Origin: a virus
Lineage: Duplodnaviria; Heunggongvirae; Uroviricota; Caudoviricetes
Length of the DNA: 12,985 nucleotides
Virus record (IMG/VR): IMGVR_UViG_2645727562_000001
Location: 1-12,985 of that record
Reading direction: 5' to 3' (one strand)
Below, one piece after another: positions 2,141-12,985 of the stretch. The notes beneath the pieces were generated by a model that saw nothing but the letters and a program-made list of their open reading frames with translations, ran no database searches and was not told the origin of the DNA. Both the position numbers and the translations under genes were made by a program. The stretch's first letter is position 1, and each line of letters starts with the position of its first letter.

Positions 2141-3577
2141 TCAGAATCCTCCTTTCTTCTTGGACTGCGGTTCCTCGCGTTCACGGCGGCGCATTTCAGC
2201 AGACTGTTGGTCTGTGTCATAAATAGCGCCATTTGCCTGAATGCAATACACCGTGCCGGTATTGCCATGACGATTGAGGCGAAGGATTAGTTCGGTTTCA
2301 CCAGGAGGAACGCTGTCATCAAAAGCGCCTTCACGATGGATCCCCACCCAATAATCGCAATCCTGTTCAATCTGCCCTGTATCTCGTGAGTCACTTGGTA
2401 ATGGGCGTTTATTGGTTCGGCTTTCCAGTGCGCGGTTAAGCTGTGTCAGAAGCACAACAACGCAATCAAGCTCTTTGGCAAGGTTCTTCAGTCCTTTGGT
2501 GATCATGCCGTAAGCAAGGTCGTTGCGATCGGCCTTCTCAGCGGTCATTAGTGTCAGGTAATCGACCAGAATCATGCCAACACATCCTTTTTCTCGCTTG
2601 ATTCGACGGCTTTCGCTGACGATTTGAGCCAGAGATAATCCCGGCGTGTCGTCGATGTAAAGCAGGTCGATTTCACTCAAGCGATTGGCTGTTTCGATCG
2701 CCCTGTTGAAGTCACCATCGTAATCACCCTGATAGCCGTCATCAGCGTCATTTGTCGCCAGAAGGTAAAAAATATTGGGGTTAACACCTGACTTTTGCCC
2801 TACCAGTTTTTCCAGTATCTGGTCACCTGGCATTTCAAGGCTGAACATCAGAGCGGGCTTTTTCTCATGCACTGCGCAGTTGATTGCCATCTGGCTGTAT
2901 AGCGTCGTTTTCCCCATCTTAGGGCGAGCGCCAATGACAAACAAAGAGCCTTTCACCAGACCTTTCGGTGACAGCATCCTGTCCAGCGATGGGATCCCTG
3001 TGCTCATTCCTCGTTGTTCGCCTGACGGGTCAAATCGCTTCTCAAGGTCGCTAACCCAGTCTTCCATGACCTCACCAAATGAGCGAAGGCCGCGACGCGA
3101 TCCGGTTTTTGCATGGTCTGTCAGTTGCGTGAAAATCGCCTGAATAGCTTCGTACTTCTGCGTTGCAGTCATTCCGTTGCGGGAATAGAGCAATTCCGTC
3201 GCTTCAGTCATGCGGTTGATGGCGTAGCGTTCCATTGCGGTTTCACGAACCTGCATTGCATAGGCAACGATGTTTGCTGCGCTTGGCGTGTTCTTTGCGA
3301 TCTCAGCGATATAAGCAAAACCGCCAACAGACTCCGTTAACGATTTACGCTCCAGTTCATCGAAAAGCGTCAGGCCATCTACTGGCTTTTGCTCCCGGTG
3401 CATTATGGTTATTTCTTCGAAAAGGATTTTGTGTGGCCGGCTGTAAAATGAATCAGGCTTCAGCATCGCCAGAACTTTCTGGACGCGCTCACTGCTGTCA
3501 TCATCCAGAAGCAATCCACCAATCACCGCCTGCTCTGCCTCGATGCTATGGGGCGGCGCATAAAAATTATCGGTCAT
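2141..3577 (-). CDS. DnaB-family replicative DNA helicase
   Basis: Product of about 479 aa with an N-terminal DnaB-like domain (IEAEQAVIGGLLLD), Walker A (GARPKMGKTT) and a Walker B-like motif (ILVDYLTLM). ATG at 3575-3577 with GAGGGTG upstream overlaps the O-like gene 3' end; the six-frame track extends to a GTG at 3592. Confidence 0.85.
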   Translation of the reverse strand: MTDNFYAPPHSIEAEQAVIGGLLLDDDSSERVQKVLAMLKPDSFYSRPHKILFEEITIMHREQKPVDGLTLFDELERKSLTESVGGFAYIAEIAKNTPSAANIVAYAMQVRETAMERYAINRMTEATELLYSRNGMTATQKYEAIQAIFTQLTDHAKTGSRRGLRSFGEVMEDWVSDLEKRFDPSGEQRGMSTGIPSLDRMLSPKGLVKGSLFVIGARPKMGKTTLYSQMAINCAVHEKKPALMFSLEMPGDQILEKLVGQKSGVNPNIFYLLATNDADDGYQGDYDGDFNRAIETANRLSEIDLLYIDDTPGLSLAQIVSESRRIKREKGCVGMILVDYLTLMTAEKADRNDLAYGMITKGLKNLAKELDCVVVLLTQLNRALESRTNKRPLPSDSRDTGQIEQDCDYWVGIHREGAFDDSVPPGETELILRLNRHGNTGTVYCIQANGAIYDTDQQSAEMRRREREEPQSKKKGGF

Positions 3578-4532
3578 CGTGTTCACCCTCACGAACTTTC
3601 AGGTAGGTATTATCGTTAAGCAGGAAATCAAATCCCTTTTTGTGCCAGACGGTTCCGCGTTGATGGTTTGGGCGCTCTTCGAACATCCATCGGCAATTTT
3701 CGCCTACGTAGCTCAAATAATTTCTCCAGTCCTGCATCGTGAACCCATGCCCGTCAAGCTGGCGGGTTATCACTCCGGCTTTGCGCCAGAACGTTCGGAT
3801 CTGGTTTTTACGCTTGTCATTCAGTGCGCGGATTCTTGGCGCTTCAGGAAGGATTTCGTGGTAAGCATCGACAACATCCTGACAGCTAACGGAAGGTTTT
3901 TTCTTGTCAGACTTTTTGTCTGCTGCGGTACTCTCTAATACGTCAGTATTAGAGATAATATTATTATATTCTTTATCTGTGGTAATTTGCTGGTAATCTG
4001 CTGGTACAGTATTGCTTGCAGGCATTGGTATTGCTGGCTTTGAGGTGGTAATTTGCTGGTAATCTGCTGGTACAGTATTGCTTGCAGGCATTGGTATTGC
4101 TGGCTTTGAGGTGGTAATTTGCTGGTAATCTGCTGGTACAAAATTTGACTGATAATCGTCATATTTCTCTACCGAGAAAACTGAGAATTTACCGTGTGAA
4201 ACCCAGTCAATCATGCCGAGTTTTTTGAACTTTCTAAGCAGGTACTGAACGCGATCTGGTTTGAGTCCTGTTTCAAACGCCAGAGAGTTTCTACCGCCAA
4301 GTAGCTTCCCTCTGCCTACCAGAATTTCTCCTGCGTCAGTCATTACATACTCAGGCGTATGCTTTGCTTTGAGGATTAAGTGAACCCACAGATGCGCAGC
4401 TTCTGCGTCCTTGTAAAACGGCACATCCATAATTTTACGGTGCAGCAAGGCATACCCCTTACCGCTGCTTTGATGCGGTTGTTGTAGCCTTCTGGCCTCT
4501 CTGGCTTCGGCTAGATTAGATATGTTACTCAT
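3567..4532 (-). CDS. Replication initiator, lambda O-like, with internal tandem 22-aa repeats
   Basis: 321-aa ORF in the O position, immediately upstream of and overlapping the helicase gene. The central region has three copies of [22 protein letters not shown] encoded by the 66-bp DNA repeats. The conserved-looking C-terminal domain fits phage replication initiators. Confidence 0.7.
3979..4139. repeat. About 2.4 tandem copies of a 66-bp unit containing TGCTGGTA-type sub-repeats; putative replication origin iterons
   Basis: Exact 66-bp periodicity (copies begin at 3979, 4045 and 4111). Each unit holds several TGCTGGTA-like short repeats. A strongly AT-rich stretch lies next to it at 3935-3978. 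Iterons followed by an AT-rich region inside the initiator gene is the lambda ori architecture. Confidence 0.6.
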
Positions 4533-4671
4533 GACCTTTCTCCTTCTGCATCAGCTTCACTTTTTCCAACTCAGCCCGGAATCGACCAGGCTGCTTGAAG
4601 CTGGACAGGAAGCGATCACGTAGTATGTGTTTGTGAATTTTGTCCTGGTAAGGACTGAGTTGTTTTGTCAT
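4525..4671 (-). CDS. Unlisted small ORF between cII and the O-like gene, 48 aa, basic
   Basis: Reverse-complement reading gives AGGAG, six nt, then ATG (4669-4671): [48 protein letters not shown]. Its stop overlaps the O-like start codon. Below the length cutoff of the supplied track. Confidence 0.3.
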
Positions 4672-4703
4672 AATTACTCCTGTGGATTGATCCAGTAATT
4701 CCC

Positions 4704-5000
4704 TCAGAATTGCATATCAATTTGCTTAAAATCCTCGGTGGCGGCCGGGGATTTTTTCTTTGTGATTTCATCAAGCGCATACTTAAAAGCCCTGCTAATC
4801 GGACTGATGTCTGATGCCATTCCGAAAGCACACAAGACCGAAGCAATAAATCTCCAGTCCGTTCTGCTTATCTTCGATTCATGACAGCCAATCATCTTTG
4901 CCAGACCGCGCTGGGTAAGTGTTGATAGGTTGATGAGTAAATCTGTTTCTGCGCGATCAACGTCACGCTGTGATAGTTTGCTGTAACTTGTTCGTTCCAT
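4704..5000 (-). CDS. cII: CII-like transcriptional activator (divergent from lambda CII)
   Basis: 98 aa in the position downstream of cro and nutR. C-terminus [18 protein letters not shown] resembles lambda CII NKKRPAATERSEQIQMEF, and a central HTH-like segment is present. Confidence 0.7.
4741..4770 (+). ncRNA. 3' terminator hairpin of a putative OOP-like antisense RNA overlapping the cII 3' end
   Basis: Plus-strand hairpin ATCCTCGGTGGCGGCCGGGGAT (4741-4762) followed by TTTTTTCTTT, antisense to the last roughly 20 codons of cII. This is the position and form of the lambda OOP RNA terminator. The 5' end and promoter are not confidently placed. Confidence 0.4.
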
Positions 5001-5085
5001 TTCTTAAGATTTCCAATAGTGAATAGTTAGTTGAAAGGTATGCGTGGAAACGCATATGGCCTTAGTTGGTCAGATATCTTGGGAC

Positions 5086-5131
5086 TCGCTTTGTCAGCGA
5101 CGTAGGACGAATGTCCATTGTGAAAATAGCG
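5086..5131 (-). promoter_or_regulatory. nutR: boxA-like CGCTATTTT and boxB hairpin with GACAA loop
   Basis: On the minus-strand transcript just after the cro stop: CGCTATTTT (reverse complement of 5123-5131) lies where lambda has boxA CGCTCTTAC, then UCGCU-GACAA-AGCGA (reverse complement of 5086-5100). The same hairpin recurs at nutL. The loop matches the P22-type boxB as recalled. Confidence 0.5.
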
Positions 5132-5138
5132 GTGTTAC

Positions 5139-5348
<210 letters not shown>

Positions 5349-5363
5349 TTAGTACATGCAACC

Positions 5364-5392
5364 ATTATCACCGCTAGAGGTAAAATAGTCAA
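5364..5392 (-). promoter_or_regulatory. pR promoter driving cro
   Basis: Minus-strand -35 TTGACT (reverse complement of 5387-5392) and -10 GATAAT (reverse complement of 5364-5369), overlapping OR1/OR2 exactly as in lambda. Confidence 0.85.
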
Positions 5393-5404
5393 CACGCACG
5401 GTGT

Positions 5405-5429
<25 letters not shown>
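5366..5429. promoter_or_regulatory. Right operator OR1-OR2-OR3, lambda type
   Basis: Three 17-bp operator half-palindromes: OR1 5366-5382 (TATCACCGCTAGAGGTA), OR2 5390-5406 (CAACACGCACGGTGTTA), OR3 5413-5429 (TATCCCTTGCGGTGATA). OR2 and OR3 match lambda; OR1 differs at one position from the canonical sequence as recalled. Confidence 0.9.
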
Positions 5430-6153
<724 letters not shown>

Positions 6154-6160
6154 CACGTAA

Positions 6161-6598
6161 ATGATTAAAGAACGTATTTCTTATATCATTCCGATTGCGA
6201 TGGATGAAGGCAACCCAGTAACTCCAGTTCTTATCTATGAAATGGATAAAGACTCCCATGAAGTGGATCTATCATTTGGCGCTTTTTTTATCGGCCTTAA
6301 GGCTACAAAAAAATATTCCATAGGCATTGAGGTTTTCAATGCTCAAGAAATACCGATACCAATTGACACAAAACTGTACTCCAACCATAAGTTTTTTACG
6401 GTAGCAGAAGCCAACGATGGAGAAACCATCGTATCAACTTCTATGAGAATTAACTTCCCAAGGGTGAAAATTATCAAGCCTGGGATATTCGAAGTTAGAG
6501 CATCACTGGTTAATCCTGATAAAGGCGAAGTAATTGATGTAAAAAGTTCGTTTTTTGACGTGAAGATAACAGGATCAGTTCGCGATGAGTTTAGATAA
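6161..6598 (+). CDS. Unknown soluble protein, 145 aa; first gene of the cargo cassette in the rexA position
   Basis: ORF starts 8 nt after the cI stop codon. Markedly AT-rich compared with cI. No transmembrane segment or recognisable catalytic motif; alternating hydrophobic pattern suggests a beta-rich fold. The downstream gene overlaps it by 14 nt. Confidence 0.6.
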   Translation: MIKERISYIIPIAMDEGNPVTPVLIYEMDKDSHEVDLSFGAFFIGLKATKKYSIGIEVFNAQEIPIPIDTKLYSNHKFFTVAEANDGETIVSTSMRINFPRVKIIKPGIFEVRASLVNPDKGEVIDVKSSFFDVKITGSVRDEFR

Positions 6599-6956
6599 CA
6601 AGGTTGCTCAGCTTCGTCCAAATCAAAACATATCTCGCCCAATTGGACACTATTCCACTGATGATGCATACTCACGGCATGGTGGAGGAAACGGCGGAGG
6701 TAACATGCTTGAGGCTAGAGTTGCAAAGCTAGAGTCTGATGTTGAATACATCAAGCGCGATCTCGCTGAAGTAAAGTCAGATATAAAATCTGTAGATTCT
6801 CGTCTGTCAGGTATTGAGACAAGCATTAGCTCAGCAAAAATCACCATCAAGGCATCTGCGGTCGTTGTCAGTTTCGTGTTCGCATTTTGCGCCTACATTT
6901 TTGGAAGTTATGTTTCCAAAATCCTTGATGCCTTAAACGGACTCGTTCTTAAGTAA
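6585..6956 (+). CDS. Coiled-coil protein with a single C-terminal transmembrane helix (XhlA-like architecture); second cargo gene in the rexB position
   Basis: The 123-aa ORF overlaps the upstream gene. An alternative ATG at 6705 is preceded by GGAGG at a 4-nt spacing and would give an 83-aa product starting MLEARVAKLESD. Features: Gly-rich low-complexity N-terminus (HGGGNGGGN), heptad-like coiled coil (LEARVAKLESDVEYIKRDLAEVKSDIKSVDSRLSGIE), then a hydrophobic anchor (ASAVVVSFVFAFCAYIFGSYV). Confidence 0.6.
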   Translation: MSLDNKVAQLRPNQNISRPIGHYSTDDAYSRHGGGNGGGNMLEARVAKLESDVEYIKRDLAEVKSDIKSVDSRLSGIETSISSAKITIKASAVVVSFVFAFCAYIFGSYVSKILDALNGLVLK

Positions 6957-7146: not shown

Positions 7147-7209
7147 AACCATCTGCGGTGATAAATTATCTCTGGCGGTGTTGACATAAATACCACTGGC
7201 GGTGATACT
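7147..7209 (+). promoter_or_regulatory. Left operator OL3-OL2-OL1 with pL promoter, lambda type
   Basis: OL3 7147-7163 (AACCATCTGCGGTGATA), OL2 7167-7183 (TATCTCTGGCGGTGTTG), OL1 7191-7207 (TACCACTGGCGGTGATA). pL -35 TTGACA 7181-7186 and -10 GATACT 7204-7209. Matches the canonical lambda pL/OL sequence; pL reads rightward in this window. Confidence 0.92.
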
Positions 7210-7457: not shown

Positions 7458-7841
7458 ATGACACGCAGAACTCAGTTCAAAGGCAATTCACGTTCTCGTC
7501 GTCGTGAGCGTTTAAAGGCAAAGGCATTAGCTAACGGCGTACTGGCCCGCGAAGAAGCAATAAGTTCAGAAGTATTACACCGCCCTACTCTAAGCAGAGC
7601 GCAGATTCAGGCTAAAGGTACTCACGAAACGCCTGAGCGCATAGAAGACGCTAAGCCAATTAAGTTCATGGCACAGGACGTGATCTGGCAACAGAAAGAA
7701 TACAGACGCAATCTGGAGAGAGCGGCCATTGTGTACGCGAATGAGTTTGGGCATAGGCAACCAGAAACTGGTGTATGTCTTCCAAATGTAGCTCTTTACG
7801 CGGCAGGCTACAGGAAATCAAAACAACTGACGGCGAGGTAA
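7458..7841 (+). CDS. N: N-family transcription antiterminator, non-lambda type
   Basis: 127-aa protein directly downstream of pL and nutL with GGAGG Shine-Dalgarno. N-terminal arginine-rich motif (GNSRSRRRERLKAKALA). C-terminus LPNVALYAAGYRKSKQLTAR resembles the P22 N-like (gp24) C-terminus as recalled. Not similar to lambda N. Confidence 0.85.
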   Translation: MTRRTQFKGNSRSRRRERLKAKALANGVLAREEAISSEVLHRPTLSRAQIQAKGTHETPERIEDAKPIKFMAQDVIWQQKEYRRNLERAAIVYANEFGHRQPETGVCLPNVALYAAGYRKSKQLTAR

Positions 7842-8641: not shown

Positions 8642-8812
8642 ATGCAACAGTTCGCTATTGCAGGGGCGGCATCGGTTCGCCCTTTCAACCCGATTTTATC
8701 GGTGCAGCATTCACGAAAAAATATTTTAACCGGAGCAGACTTTAAACAACCTCGCGTTAAGAGCTTGCTGGATCGTCTTGTTGAGTTTCTGAATCAAAAG
8801 GTACAGCCATGA
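8642..8812 (+). CDS. cIII: CIII-like protein (putative FtsH inhibitor), 56 aa
   Basis: Internal start of ORF 8537..8812 with AGGAG 7 nt upstream; the listed N-terminal extension spans the terminator. N-terminus MQQFAIAG resembles lambda CIII MQYAIAG, and there is an amphipathic segment (KSLLDRLVEFLNQ). Similarity beyond the N-terminus is weak. Confidence 0.5.
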   Translation: MQQFAIAGAASVRPFNPILSVQHSRKNILTGADFKQPRVKSLLDRLVEFLNQKVQP

Positions 8813-8973
8813 AAAAACCAACTTACGAGGAACTGGAAGAAGCCCTGAAAGAGCTTAGAAGAATGGCTTTCGCCAGACGCACTAACTCTCACAACTGCGG
8901 CCCATTTCAGTACTCTGATTTATGCGAGGACATCATTGAGGTAACTCAACTGATTAAGGTCGTTAAGCAATGA
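8809..8973 (+). CDS. Unlisted small ORF, 54 aa, in the kil position
   Basis: ATGA overlap with the cIII-like stop. Product MKKPTYEELEEALKELRRMAFARRTNSHNCGPFQYSDLCEDIIEVTQLIKVVKQ. No similarity to lambda Kil as recalled. Confidence 0.35.
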   Translation: MKKPTYEELEEALKELRRMAFARRTNSHNCGPFQYSDLCEDIIEVTQLIKVVKQ

Positions 8974-9077
8974 GCATTGCGGATACATGGTCAGACGAAG
9001 AATTCATTCGTCAGATGAAAGAAATGCTCAATCAGCACAAAGAACAGGAGAAAGATGATGATTCTGACTCTGAATGA
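8970..9077 (+). CDS. Unlisted very small acidic ORF, 35 aa
   Basis: ATGA overlap with the previous ORF (MSIADTWSDEEFIRQMKEMLNQHKEQEKDDDSDSE). Its 3' end overlaps the next gene's start region. Weak support. Confidence 0.2.
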   Translation: MSIADTWSDEEFIRQMKEMLNQHKEQEKDDDSDSE

Positions 9078-9366
9078 TAAGCGTGAAATATCGCAAATCA
9101 TCGCAAGTTTTACCGATGAAGATTACGAACGAATCAACAGTGAAGTTGATCGTCTCTGCAAACGTTGCGACCCAATAAGCGAAATGCTTCGCTCATATAA
9201 ACCAGATGAACACACTAAGGACGCTATCGACTGGCTGGAAGATGATGACTGTAACTATCAGGAAAAAGCCGCTGAATGGTTCTGGGATGCAATAACCGAA
9301 AGAGTTAAGGCTGAATATGCCTTCGCAATATTCAAACGCAGACATATTTATGGAGAAGCTGCATGA
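9055..9366 (+). CDS. Hypothetical protein, 103 aa
   Basis: AGGAG 5 nt upstream of ATGATG at 9055. Its stop overlaps the RecT start as ATGA. No family recognised. Confidence 0.5.
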   Translation: MMILTLNDKREISQIIASFTDEDYERINSEVDRLCKRCDPISEMLRSYKPDEHTKDAIDWLEDDDCNYQEKAAEWFWDAITERVKAEYAFAIFKRRHIYGEAA

Positions 9367-10265
9367 GCAATATCGTTGAATTCGTTAAACAGCAAGAGCA
9401 GTTATTCTGCGGAGCATTGACTGAACAGACGGTGACATGGGCTAAGGAAAGCCAGTTTGCAATTCAGTATTTCCAGAAAAACGATTACCTGGCTAAAACA
9501 GCACTGGCAAATCCAACCAGCGCACAGAACGCCATCATCAATGTTGCGGCGATCGGCATCACCTTAAACCCGGCCAGCAAACTGGCTTATCTGGTTCCTC
9601 GCGACGGCATGGTGTGCCTTGATATCAGTTACATGGGATTACTTCATCTTGCGCAATCGACAGGATCAATTAAGTGGGGGCAATGCAAACTGGTGTACTC
9701 AAACGACACCTATGAATCAAATGGCCTTGATTCAGCACCAACCCACAAATACAACGCATTTGGTGAGCGAGGCTCTATTGTTGGAGGTTATTGCACGGTT
9801 AAAACAGCAGATGGTGACTACCTGACTGAAGAAATGAGTCTGGCAGAAATTAAAGCTGTGGAAGCAACGAGCAAGGCAAAGAATGGACCGTGGAAAACAT
9901 TCTGGGAAGAGATGGCGCGTAAAACAATAGTTAAACGCGCCAGCAAATACTGGCCTAAAGCCCAGCGACTGGATAATGCCATTCACCTTCTTAACGAAGA
10001 TGAAGGTATGCATCAGGAACCAGTTATGCCGCACAAATCAGAGGAAGATATCCGCGAAGATGAACGGAAACGCCAGCAGGAAATAATGGATAAAGCACAA
10101 CTTCTTTGCGATGAAATGGCTCAGGCAGAAAACATGGATGATTTGAAGCGATATTTTGCAGAAGCATATCGCCTGACATCTGGAATGAAATTGCAGCAGA
10201 ACGTACAAGCCATTTACATAGAATGCAAAGCGAAGCTGGAGGTTGCCAGTGAGCAAACTGTATGA
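9363..10265 (+). CDS. recT: RecT-family single-strand annealing recombinase
   Basis: 300-aa product. C-terminal segment NGPWKTFWEEMARKTIVKRASKYWP aligns with Rac RecT NGPWVTHWEEMAKKTAIRRLFKYLP as recalled. Occupies the bet position of the pL operon. Confidence 0.8.
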   Translation: MSNIVEFVKQQEQLFCGALTEQTVTWAKESQFAIQYFQKNDYLAKTALANPTSAQNAIINVAAIGITLNPASKLAYLVPRDGMVCLDISYMGLLHLAQSTGSIKWGQCKLVYSNDTYESNGLDSAPTHKYNAFGERGSIVGGYCTVKTADGDYLTEEMSLAEIKAVEATSKAKNGPWKTFWEEMARKTIVKRASKYWPKAQRLDNAIHLLNEDEGMHQEPVMPHKSEEDIREDERKRQQEIMDKAQLLCDEMAQAENMDDLKRYFAEAYRLTSGMKLQQNVQAIYIECKAKLEVASEQTV

Positions 10266-10731
10266 AATTGCCAATGAATACGCAAAATTGATGGATTCAG
10301 ATTTAGAGCCAGAGATGATTGCTGACACAATAGAAGGCATGGAAGGAGAATTTACCGATAAAATAGAGCAACTTCTTGCCATTATTAAAAATGAATCTGG
10401 TTATGCTGAACGCCTCAAGGACGAGGCAAAGTCACTGAATGAACGAGCAGCAGTAATTCAAAATAAGATTGATAGCATTATGGCATATATAGCGTCATCG
10501 CTTGAAATGGTTGGCAAGAAAAAGATTCGAGCAGGTATTCACCAGGTAACAATCCGCAAACCGTCAGAAACTGTAGAAATCATCGACTCAAGCGCCATTC
10601 CTCCTGAATACGTTGAGTTTGAAACGACAATTAAAGCCGACAAGTTGGCAATCAAACACCAACTAAAAGCAGGAATAAATATCCCCGGCGCTCAACTCAA
10701 AGTTGGGAAACCTTCACTTCTTATCAAATAA
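10249..10731 (+). CDS. Coiled-coil protein, possibly siphovirus Gp157-like, about 160 aa
   Basis: ORF 10243..10731. GGAGG (10237-10241) precedes a GTG at 10249, which is the preferred start; the first in-frame ATG is at 10291. Family assignment is tentative and from memory. Confidence 0.45.
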   Translation: MSKLYEIANEYAKLMDSDLEPEMIADTIEGMEGEFTDKIEQLLAIIKNESGYAERLKDEAKSLNERAAVIQNKIDSIMAYIASSLEMVGKKKIRAGIHQVTIRKPSETVEIIDSSAIPPEYVEFETTIKADKLAIKHQLKAGINIPGAQLKVGKPSLLIK

Positions 10732-10742
10732 CGGTATCGCCT

Positions 10743-11057
10743 ATGAAAAAGACTCCATGGGAGAAATGGGAAGTCGATTTCTTGCGCGAAGTAGCGGCGA
10801 CAATGCCAGTTGAAGTTATCGCTGAAAAACTGGAAAGGACTGAAAAAGCAGTTATGGCGAAAGCAACAAGGATTGGCGCTGACATTGTTAGCCGACTTCG
10901 TGGAAGACGCTGGACAAGAGCCGAAGTATCACTTTTCGGTAAGTTCTCCGCAGAAGAAATAGCAATTGCAACCTGCCGCTCAATTTATTCAGTAAGAGCT
11001 ATGCGATACAAGCTAAAAAAACTCGATGAAGAAAGAGCAGGCATACAAATAAATTAA
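10743..11057 (+). CDS. Hypothetical basic protein, 104 aa, with two similar helical half-repeats
   Basis: Intact ORF. Internal duplication-like pattern (W..W/E..L......E.IA......RT/S..A.......) suggests a tandem helix-turn-helix-like fold. Inference only. Confidence 0.45.
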   Translation: MKKTPWEKWEVDFLREVAATMPVEVIAEKLERTEKAVMAKATRIGADIVSRLRGRRWTRAEVSLFGKFSAEEIAIATCRSIYSVRAMRYKLKKLDEERAGIQIN

Positions 11058-12971: not shown

Positions 12972-12985
12972 TATGAGCGCTATAA

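Follow-up and report, generated by a model that had tools for sequence, protein, structure and literature searches.

Recombination Modules of Lambdoid Phages

A catalogue covering 325 lambdoid phages sorts their Rec modules into classes (Zheng, Casjens, Davidson, Amundsen, and Smith; Genome Res 2025; PMC12315714). In this catalogue, 84 of 246 modules are devoid of a nuclease, and 46 phages form the P22 class, which combines an annealase with an anti-RecBCD gene and has no nuclease. Phage HK140 is entered there as SAP-4 plus MuGam, with neither nuclease nor SSB. In lambda Red (gam-bet-exo) and in phage phi80 (gamL-rec-exo), three slots of the pL operon are filled successively by a small acidic helical protein, a RecT/Red-beta annealase, and a partner whose gene overlaps the end of the annealase gene or begins shortly after it. 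This partner is a 5'-3' exonuclease of the YqaJ/Exo type. Phage P22 (arf-erf-abc1-abc2; PMC12315714, Table 1) uses Erf as its annealase and relies on anti-RecBCD functions without a phage nuclease. Phage Mu has no annealase; its Gam protein (PF07352) is a Ku-like nuclease inhibitor of 174 residues that binds dsDNA ends. In Firmicutes phages, gp157, Mu gam-like, DUF1351, and DUF2483 genes are interchangeable beside erf and sak4, the Gp157-family gene being located upstream of the single-strand annealing protein gene, often without an exonuclease (Steczkiewicz et al. 2021; PMC8093625).

The stretch of DNA analysed here (the window, 12,985 nucleotides of a Caudoviricetes virus, IMG/VR record IMGVR_UViG_2645727562_000001) harbors a module that, judged by its sequence, is an HK140-type Rec module: the annealase is of the RecT type, a Gp157 gene follows it directly, and nuclease and SSB are absent, as in HK140. 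The two modules occupy the same position in the pL operon and share about 94% DNA identity over their common stretch. The proteins p103 and p104 are 100% identical to their HK140 counterparts and RecT is 87.8% identical over its full length, and nothing essential differs. In the window, however, the block is joined to a lambda immunity region and to different ea genes, and the published HK140 entry does not list the 102-residue gene preceding recT among the module's members (PMC12315714). The original prediction had described the coiled-coil protein following the annealase as unknown; the arrangement is already catalogued as the HK140 type.

The module retains the operon and the three-slot layout of lambda Red and phi80, and its RecT core is 57% identical to that of phi80. 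In contrast to both, its third slot is occupied by Gp157 instead of the exonuclease, its RecT tail is of another class, and its first-slot protein is not recognisable as Gam or GamL by standard searches. It shares with P22 the combination of an annealase and putative anti-RecBCD functions without a phage nuclease, although the annealase is RecT instead of Erf and no sequence similarity to Abc1 or Abc2 is found. Gp157 is close to Mu Gam in length (160 versus 174 residues) and has a gp9-like neighbor, but its gene is tied to that of an annealase, a protein that Mu does not possess. Finally, and unlike the arrangement of Firmicutes phages, the Gp157 gene lies downstream of recT, in the place held by the exonuclease in sister modules.

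Genomic Setting and Gene Order

The window covers the early and immunity region of a lambdoid phage with lambda immunity, in an orientation that places pR transcription leftward. Its landmarks are the following:

Minus strand: O-like gene, DnaB-like helicase, ninB, and Dam-like methylase (ORF list)
4704-5000, minus strand: cII (ORF list)
5139-5339, minus strand: cro (ORF list)
5366-5429: two matches to lambda-type oR operators (operator pattern search)
5440-6153, plus strand: cI-like LexA-family repressor ORF (ORF list)
7147-7207: two matches to lambda-type oL operators, marking pL, which drives the plus-strand operon (operator pattern search)
7458-7841, plus strand: N-like antiterminator, which opens the pL operon (phrog_271, E 3.8e-38)

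The oL1 site (7191-7207) displays zero mismatches to the searched pattern, and four operator matches occur in the window for 0.08 expected by chance. The repressor ORF, the oR and oL matches, and the N-like gene thus identify the region rightward of ~7200 as the pL operon. The window breaks off at 12985, still within the ea region, and the int-proximal part of this genome lies beyond it. No Chi site occurs in the window, a count that is uninformative, as only 0.18 sites are expected by chance. This count agrees with the rule given by Zheng et al. for phages bearing anti-RecBCD genes (PMC12315714).

The genes p103, recT, and the Gp157 gene are three translationally coupled genes of the pL operon, with ORFs where the original prediction had placed them, and they are followed by p104:

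9055/9058-9366, plus strand: p103, 102/103 residues (ORF 9055-9366, second ATG at 9058)
9363-10265, plus strand: recT, whose start codon overlaps the p103 stop codon in ATGA
9363-10007, plus strand: RecT core, residues 1-215, predicted single-strand annealing domain (PF03837)
10008-10265, plus strand: RecT C-terminal tail, residues 216-300, "G-type" (alignment and tail HMM class)
10249-10731, plus strand: Gp157 gene, 160 residues (GTG start)
10743-11057, plus strand: p104, 104 residues (phrog_11492, phrog_323)

The start of p103 is probably the second ATG (9058), as its homologues are 102 residues long. The ORF list starts the Gp157 gene at a TTG (10243). The alternative GTG (10249) is preceded at a distance of 6 nt by GGAGG and yields a protein of 160 residues, like its homologues; with this start, the last 17 nt of recT, stop included, belong to both genes.

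The p103-RecT-Gp157-p104 block is found at 93-97% DNA identity in the complete, plaque-forming phages HK140, mEpX1, Gally, Kapi1, Louie, and Dewey, as well as in many E. coli prophages. This conservation bears on the view that the block is a decayed remnant, in which RecT has lost its exonuclease and Gp157 and p103 are unrelated cargo, involved for example in superinfection exclusion. Gp157 indeed carries a "resistance protein" label in Pfam and in nr, although this label presumably stems from a DNA origin element of phage Sfi21 and not from the protein. Zheng et al. also call one- or two-gene modules "somewhat suspect" (PMC12315714). The block is, however, intact and coupled in phages that form plaques (HK140, mEpX1, Kapi1, and Gally), it is conserved across Enterobacterales, Aeromonas, and Vibrio, and the Gp157 family, of which an exhaustive HMMER search retrieved 12,503 representatives at 50% identity, is typically encoded beside annealases. 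Decay is the least probable of the explanations considered here.

The RecT Core, Its Tail, and the Downstream Partner

RecT matches PF03837 with an E-value of 2.5e-33 (115.7 bits for a cut-off of 24) and TIGR00616 with 76.8 bits (cut-off 52.65), and its core is 49-88% identical to the RecTs of HK140, phi80, Stx, Aeromonas, and Vibrio phages. By profile, it is a member of the RecT/Red-beta annealase family, for which annealing of ssDNA is predicted. The original prediction of a RecT-family annealase in the position of Bet is borne out, together with its pL setting.

Alignment of RecTs from 11 phages reveals a common core (residues 1-215) followed by ~85 residues that fall into two unalignable classes. 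Tails and partners were surveyed at 78 species-level loci scanned with HMMs built for this analysis, and the downstream partners of the reference phages were confirmed by Pfam. Downstream of recT, 18 loci encode Gp157 and 62 encode a YqaJ exonuclease, and no locus harbors both. A G-type tail is accompanied by a downstream Gp157 in 18/18 loci, two further G-type tails being located at contig ends, and an E-type tail by a downstream YqaJ exonuclease in 34/34 loci. The other tail types belong to 28 more distant exonuclease-linked RecTs.

Taken as independent observations, these counts would be strong evidence of a tail-partner association. This reading has to be tempered, as a neighbor-joining tree of the RecT core requires only two partner switches. 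In the first, the main Gp157-linked clade is nested among exonuclease-linked RecTs. The second is found in Vibrio phage 1.247.B, the core of which is only 49% identical and which nonetheless possesses a G tail and Gp157. With about two independent events, shared ancestry could explain much of the correlation. The RecT tail class co-switches with the downstream partner, Gp157 or exonuclease, with thin independent support.

By analogy, the G-type tail is proposed to be a partner-interaction domain specific for Gp157, which it may contact. The model for this proposal is the C-terminal domain of lambda Red-beta, which Caldwell et al. are said to have found in 2019 to bind Exo. Shuffling of partner domains is considered likely by Zheng et al., who place it "beyond the scope" of their paper (PMC12315714). 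The exclusivity of Gp157 and exonuclease, the co-switching of the RecT tail, and the hypothesis of p103 as a gam-slot protein (see below) are modest, testable additions to the published catalogue.

Absence of a Recognisable Phage Nuclease

The gene following recT belongs to the Gp157 family, as the original prediction had suspected, and not to RecE or Exo. The 160-residue protein matches Sipho_Gp157 (PF05565) with an E-value of 8.4e-37 (127 bits for a cut-off of 28.6) over profile positions 1-162 of 162 and the family HMM built here with an E-value of 1.9e-55, and no nuclease domain is detected in it. The adjacent 5'-3' exonuclease (YqaJ/Exo or RecE/DUF3799) by which a two-component SynExo recombinase (RecET, Red-alpha/beta) is recognised is not present, its place being taken by the PF05565 gene. 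Scanning of the pL-operon ORFs with Pfam and PHROGs, covering most coding sequence between 7775 and 12971, reveals no nuclease domain, and the HMM searches return no SSB or exonuclease match in the window.

A canonical exonuclease of the RecE or YqaJ/lambda Exo type might also be encoded beyond the window, in a later part of the pL operon or in another region of the phage, and the original prediction had kept this option. The window does stop within the ea region, some relatives possess HNH endonucleases (Louie; HK140 gp60 and gp70) or RusA, and in Klebsiella phage KO-TP1 a PDDEXK_5 protein is encoded ~1.3 kb downstream of the Gp157 gene. However, when every gene from N to int was listed in HK140, in Gally, and in the prophage of E. 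coli SCU-109, no annotated or Pfam-detectable nuclease was found among them, and a Pfam scan of the HK140 ea genes was equally negative for nucleases. Elsewhere in HK140, only HNH and RusA genes occur, in the nin and late regions, and HK140 is scored without nuclease in the published catalogue (PMC12315714). Furthermore, in 62/62 exonuclease-type loci only a short distance at most separates the exonuclease gene from recT, the two mostly overlapping or directly abutting at the recT stop, and a distant exonuclease partner would thus be atypical. An exonuclease outside the window is very improbable.

Gp157 and Its Relationship to Mu Gam

The original prediction recognised no Gam-like gene upstream of recT, a statement that now appears misleading, given that p103 occupies the gam slot and that Gp157 itself bears a "Mu Gam-like end protection" label (phrog_253, E 2.8e-53) and a remote, collinear similarity to Mu Gam. 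Direct searches do not detect this similarity: BLASTP of Gp157 against Mu Gam finds none, and the match to PF07352 remains below threshold (15.6 bits for a cut-off of 28.3 bits, E 0.015). A shallow profile comparison yields a weak match (E 0.064). With a deep profile of 129 family members, hhalign aligns Gp157 to the Mu Gam alignment with an E-value of 2.8e-4, at a probability of only 41%; the match is collinear over 99 columns (50-159 versus 51-160) and best over the C-terminal part. Individually, 17/129 diverse members of the family match PF07352 (best E 6e-7), which makes it the second commonest family among them, after PF05565.

The AF2 model of Gp157 (pLDDT 79) displays a helix from residue 21 to residue 88 and, after it, a small β domain of low confidence, and thus agrees with the coiled coil originally foreseen for the 160-residue protein. 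Mu Gam-type proteins combine a long helix with a small β domain behind it. Fold searches with Gp157 returned no Ku or Gam match, and the protein is acidic (pI 5.4), compared with a pI of 7.8 for Mu Gam. From these sequence comparisons, the "Mu Gam-like" label denotes a remote relative and is plausible but not proven. A literature search found no experiment on any Gp157 protein. At seven diverse contigs, the neighbors of Gp157 are Rad52-like, RecT, or SSB genes and no YqaJ exonuclease is present, three of these contigs (P0290, P0272, and P0280) being shorter than 2 kb with at most one informative neighboring gene each.

The function proposed for Gp157 is that of a dsDNA-end binder and protector that would stand in place of the exonuclease. 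It may instead assist RecT in another way: by loading it or mediating its action, by serving as an SSB-like factor, or by acting as a scaffold for a host nuclease or helicase, leaving p103 as the sole anti-RecBCD element. As a scaffold, it would bring in RecJ/RecQ or, in the manner of P22 Abc2, a modified RecBCD. Its location in the exonuclease position and its covariation with the RecT tail are compatible with such a role, as are the fold searches without Ku or Gam match. Moreover, bona fide lambda Gam or GamL is present in 10/18 Gp157 modules, so that Gp157 is either redundant as an anti-RecBCD factor or otherwise employed. Counting p103 as well, 15/18 modules carry p103, Gam, or GamL, which speaks against Gp157 being no more than a superfluous inhibitor of RecBCD. 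In contrast, the similarity to Mu Gam is collinear over ~100 columns and recurs within the family, the modelled layout would be that of Mu Gam-type proteins, and no similarity to P22 Abc1 or Abc2 is found. An accessory role of this kind is considered unlikely.

p103 and the Gam Slot

The p103 protein is 102 residues long, acidic (net charge -9), and all-helical. The slot that it occupies, immediately upstream of recT (gap of -4 to +23 nt), is filled at other loci by a phi80-type GamL or by the 98-residue lambda Gam. These three families pair with either downstream partner, as seen from the number of loci in each combination:

Gp157 downstream: p103 5, GamL 6, lambda Gam 4, none 3
YqaJ exonuclease downstream: p103 6, GamL 9, lambda Gam 4, none 43

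Distant p103 homologues precede RecT-Exo pairs in Cronobacter phage ENT47670 and Erwinia phage Midgardsormr38, and in Salmonella phage SEN22 p103 is followed by a DUF3799 nuclease.

The three slot families share a length of 92-104 residues and a net charge of -6 to -11. The p103 profile has a weak match to the lambda Gam family (E 1.2e-3, probability 20%) over 32 columns, in register, with the common motif K-x-A-I-x2-[FL]-x-D-D-[VC]-x-[FY]-Q-[ED]-[KR]-x-A-E. When ranked among 1263 control ORFs, all eight Gam sequences are found at ranks 2-11, and the best-ranked "control" is itself the gene upstream of recT at another locus. No Pfam, NCBIfam, or PADLOC-independent family matches p103, and its PHROG family is phrog_3486, distinct from the Gam family phrog_1050. 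A relationship with phi80 GamL was rejected, as neither BLAST nor hhalign detects any similarity. None of these lines is strong by itself, but in combination they allow p103 to be regarded as a reasonable candidate for a Gam-type RecBCD inhibitor.

The p104 protein (104 residues) possesses a duplicated helix-turn-helix-like motif and matches Mu gp9 by BLASTP (E 5e-5). In Mu, gp9 adjoins gam, and here the gp9-like p104 adjoins the Gp157 gene. It follows Gp157 in several loci and is also found after exonuclease-type modules, being a frequent and not an obligate neighbor. Its homologue in phage Gally is labelled "Anti-RecBCD protein 1 (Abc1)", an annotation that is unsupported, as no similarity to P22 Abc1/Abc2 exists. 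BLASTP of p103, p104, and a 93-residue protein against P22 Abc1/Abc2 gave either no alignment or an E-value of 2.9.

A Possible Mechanism without a Phage Exonuclease

The original prediction envisaged a nuclease beyond the window, the use of a host nuclease, or a non-canonical recombination or anti-nuclease module formed by the flanking proteins, and the last of these is favored. The module is probably an HK140-type module in which RecT acts with an end-protecting Gp157 and with p103 in the gam slot, the phage exonuclease being absent. A Gp157 dimer would bind the double-strand ends of replicating phage DNA, namely rolling-circle tails, cos or pac ends, and breaks, and would shield them from RecBCD and other exonucleases. 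It may be tethered to RecT through the G-type tail, in a manner comparable to lambda Exo on the C-terminal domain of Red-beta. The p103 protein would probably be a second anti-RecBCD factor, of the Gam or DNA-mimic type. The ssDNA to be annealed by RecT would originate from replication forks or from the action of host nucleases or helicases, and not from a phage exonuclease. We infer the end binding by Gp157, its contact with RecT, the inhibition of RecBCD by p103, and the source of ssDNA. One difficulty counts against this scheme: if ends are blocked in the manner of Ku or Mu Gam, resection should be hindered, which is hard to reconcile with a supply of ssDNA for RecT at capped ends.

A more far-reaching proposal combines both flanking proteins and is put forward tentatively, as it is rather doubtful in its entirety. 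Gp157 would be more than a RecBCD blocker, namely a dedicated exonuclease replacement bound to the RecT tail; the two would form a two-component recombinase ("Syn-Gam") in which an end-binding protein, and not a nuclease, hands the DNA ends to the annealase. The p103 protein (phrog_3486), which may distantly resemble the C-terminal half of lambda Gam, would represent a third, hitherto unlisted family of RecBCD inhibitors of the Gam slot.

Significance

As first stated, the finding adds little, given that nuclease-free Rec modules are common among lambdoid phages and that this exact type is catalogued. The either-or relationship of Gp157 and exonuclease, together with the switch of the RecT tail, suggests an interface between the two proteins that is open to testing. 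It also prompts one to ask in what way an annealase can cooperate with an end-binding protein in place of a resecting nuclease. As a candidate new anti-RecBCD family, p103 may be tested by a simple plating assay. The either-or relationship also has a bearing on the design of recombineering tools (RecT + Gp157 + p103 cassettes) and on the formation of concatemers by phages in RecBCD+ hosts.

Genes at the borders of the Rec module

The RecT and Gp157 genes of the pL operon are flanked by p103, an acidic protein encoded upstream of recT, and by p104. Two features lie at the borders:

8970-9077 (+), acidic 35-aa ORF matching phrog_17766
10743-11057 (+), p104 (104 aa), after Gp157; entry paired with positions 1983-2282 of the comparison DNA L005

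The 35-aa ORF is joined by ATGA coupling to a 54-aa ORF at 8809-8973 and overlaps the start of p103 by ~20 nt. In PHROGs, this ORF hits phrog_17766 (E 3e-13) as well as the N-terminus of phrog_2123, labelled "recombinase" (E 8e-9). DNA similarity to HK140, mEpX1 and Kapi1 starts at most ~20 nt from the start of this ORF, which may be a small accessory gene of the Rec module, comparable to Arf in P22.

p104 harbors an internal duplication of the motif W-x2-E...EE[IM]A...L and is similar to Mu gp9/E8 (BLASTP E 5e-5), both carrying the PHROGs label "transcriptional regulator, D5-like". The gp9/E8 gene of Mu adjoins gam, and that of p104 comes after Gp157, a putative remote relative of Mu Gam. p104 is also found downstream in some exonuclease-type modules. 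Its homologue in phage Gally (OV696608, 9765-10079) is annotated in the deposited record as "Anti-RecBCD protein 1, similar to P22 Abc1", a label left unsupported by BLASTP against P22 Abc1, which returned no alignment.

Variants of the module

In Salmonella phage SEN22 (positions 4001-5699 of the comparison DNA), p103 and p104 are both kept, and a DUF3799 (RecE-like) nuclease and a 189-aa protein stand between them, replacing RecT and Gp157. The genes on either side of the module are thus retained when its two central genes are exchanged. A metagenomic prophage (L101, 851-3561) encodes a divergent Gp157 protein of 186 aa coupled to a 716-aa protein carrying a YdfE_N domain, which takes the place of the annealase beside Gp157; this arrangement may be connected with the "RecE-2" proteins, which lack a nuclease and which Zheng et al. 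(PMC12315714) mention. Two contigs of 1.9-2.0 kb in actinomycete assemblies, titled Micromonospora sp. and Streptomyces sp. (L025, L026), bear a p103-RecT(-Gp157) block 79% identical to the enterobacterial one, and are most likely contamination of these assemblies.

Replication and immunity regions

Two further features lie outside the module:

about 3940-4130 (-), tandem repeats in the O-like gene (3567-4532), seen in translation
6161-6956 (+), two overlapping genes on the same strand as cI, directly 3' of it and before oL

In the O-like replication protein, a 23-aa unit (22 protein letters not shown) is repeated in tandem, with ~2.5 copies present, probably reflecting the iteron region of ori embedded within the gene. 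The overlapping genes encode proteins of 145 aa (phrog_5893) and 123 aa (phrog_6136), the latter with a hydrophobic C-terminus, a coiled coil and a glycine-rich stretch. In lambda, this position is occupied by rexA and rexB; the pair may form an exclusion or defence cassette expressed from the prophage.
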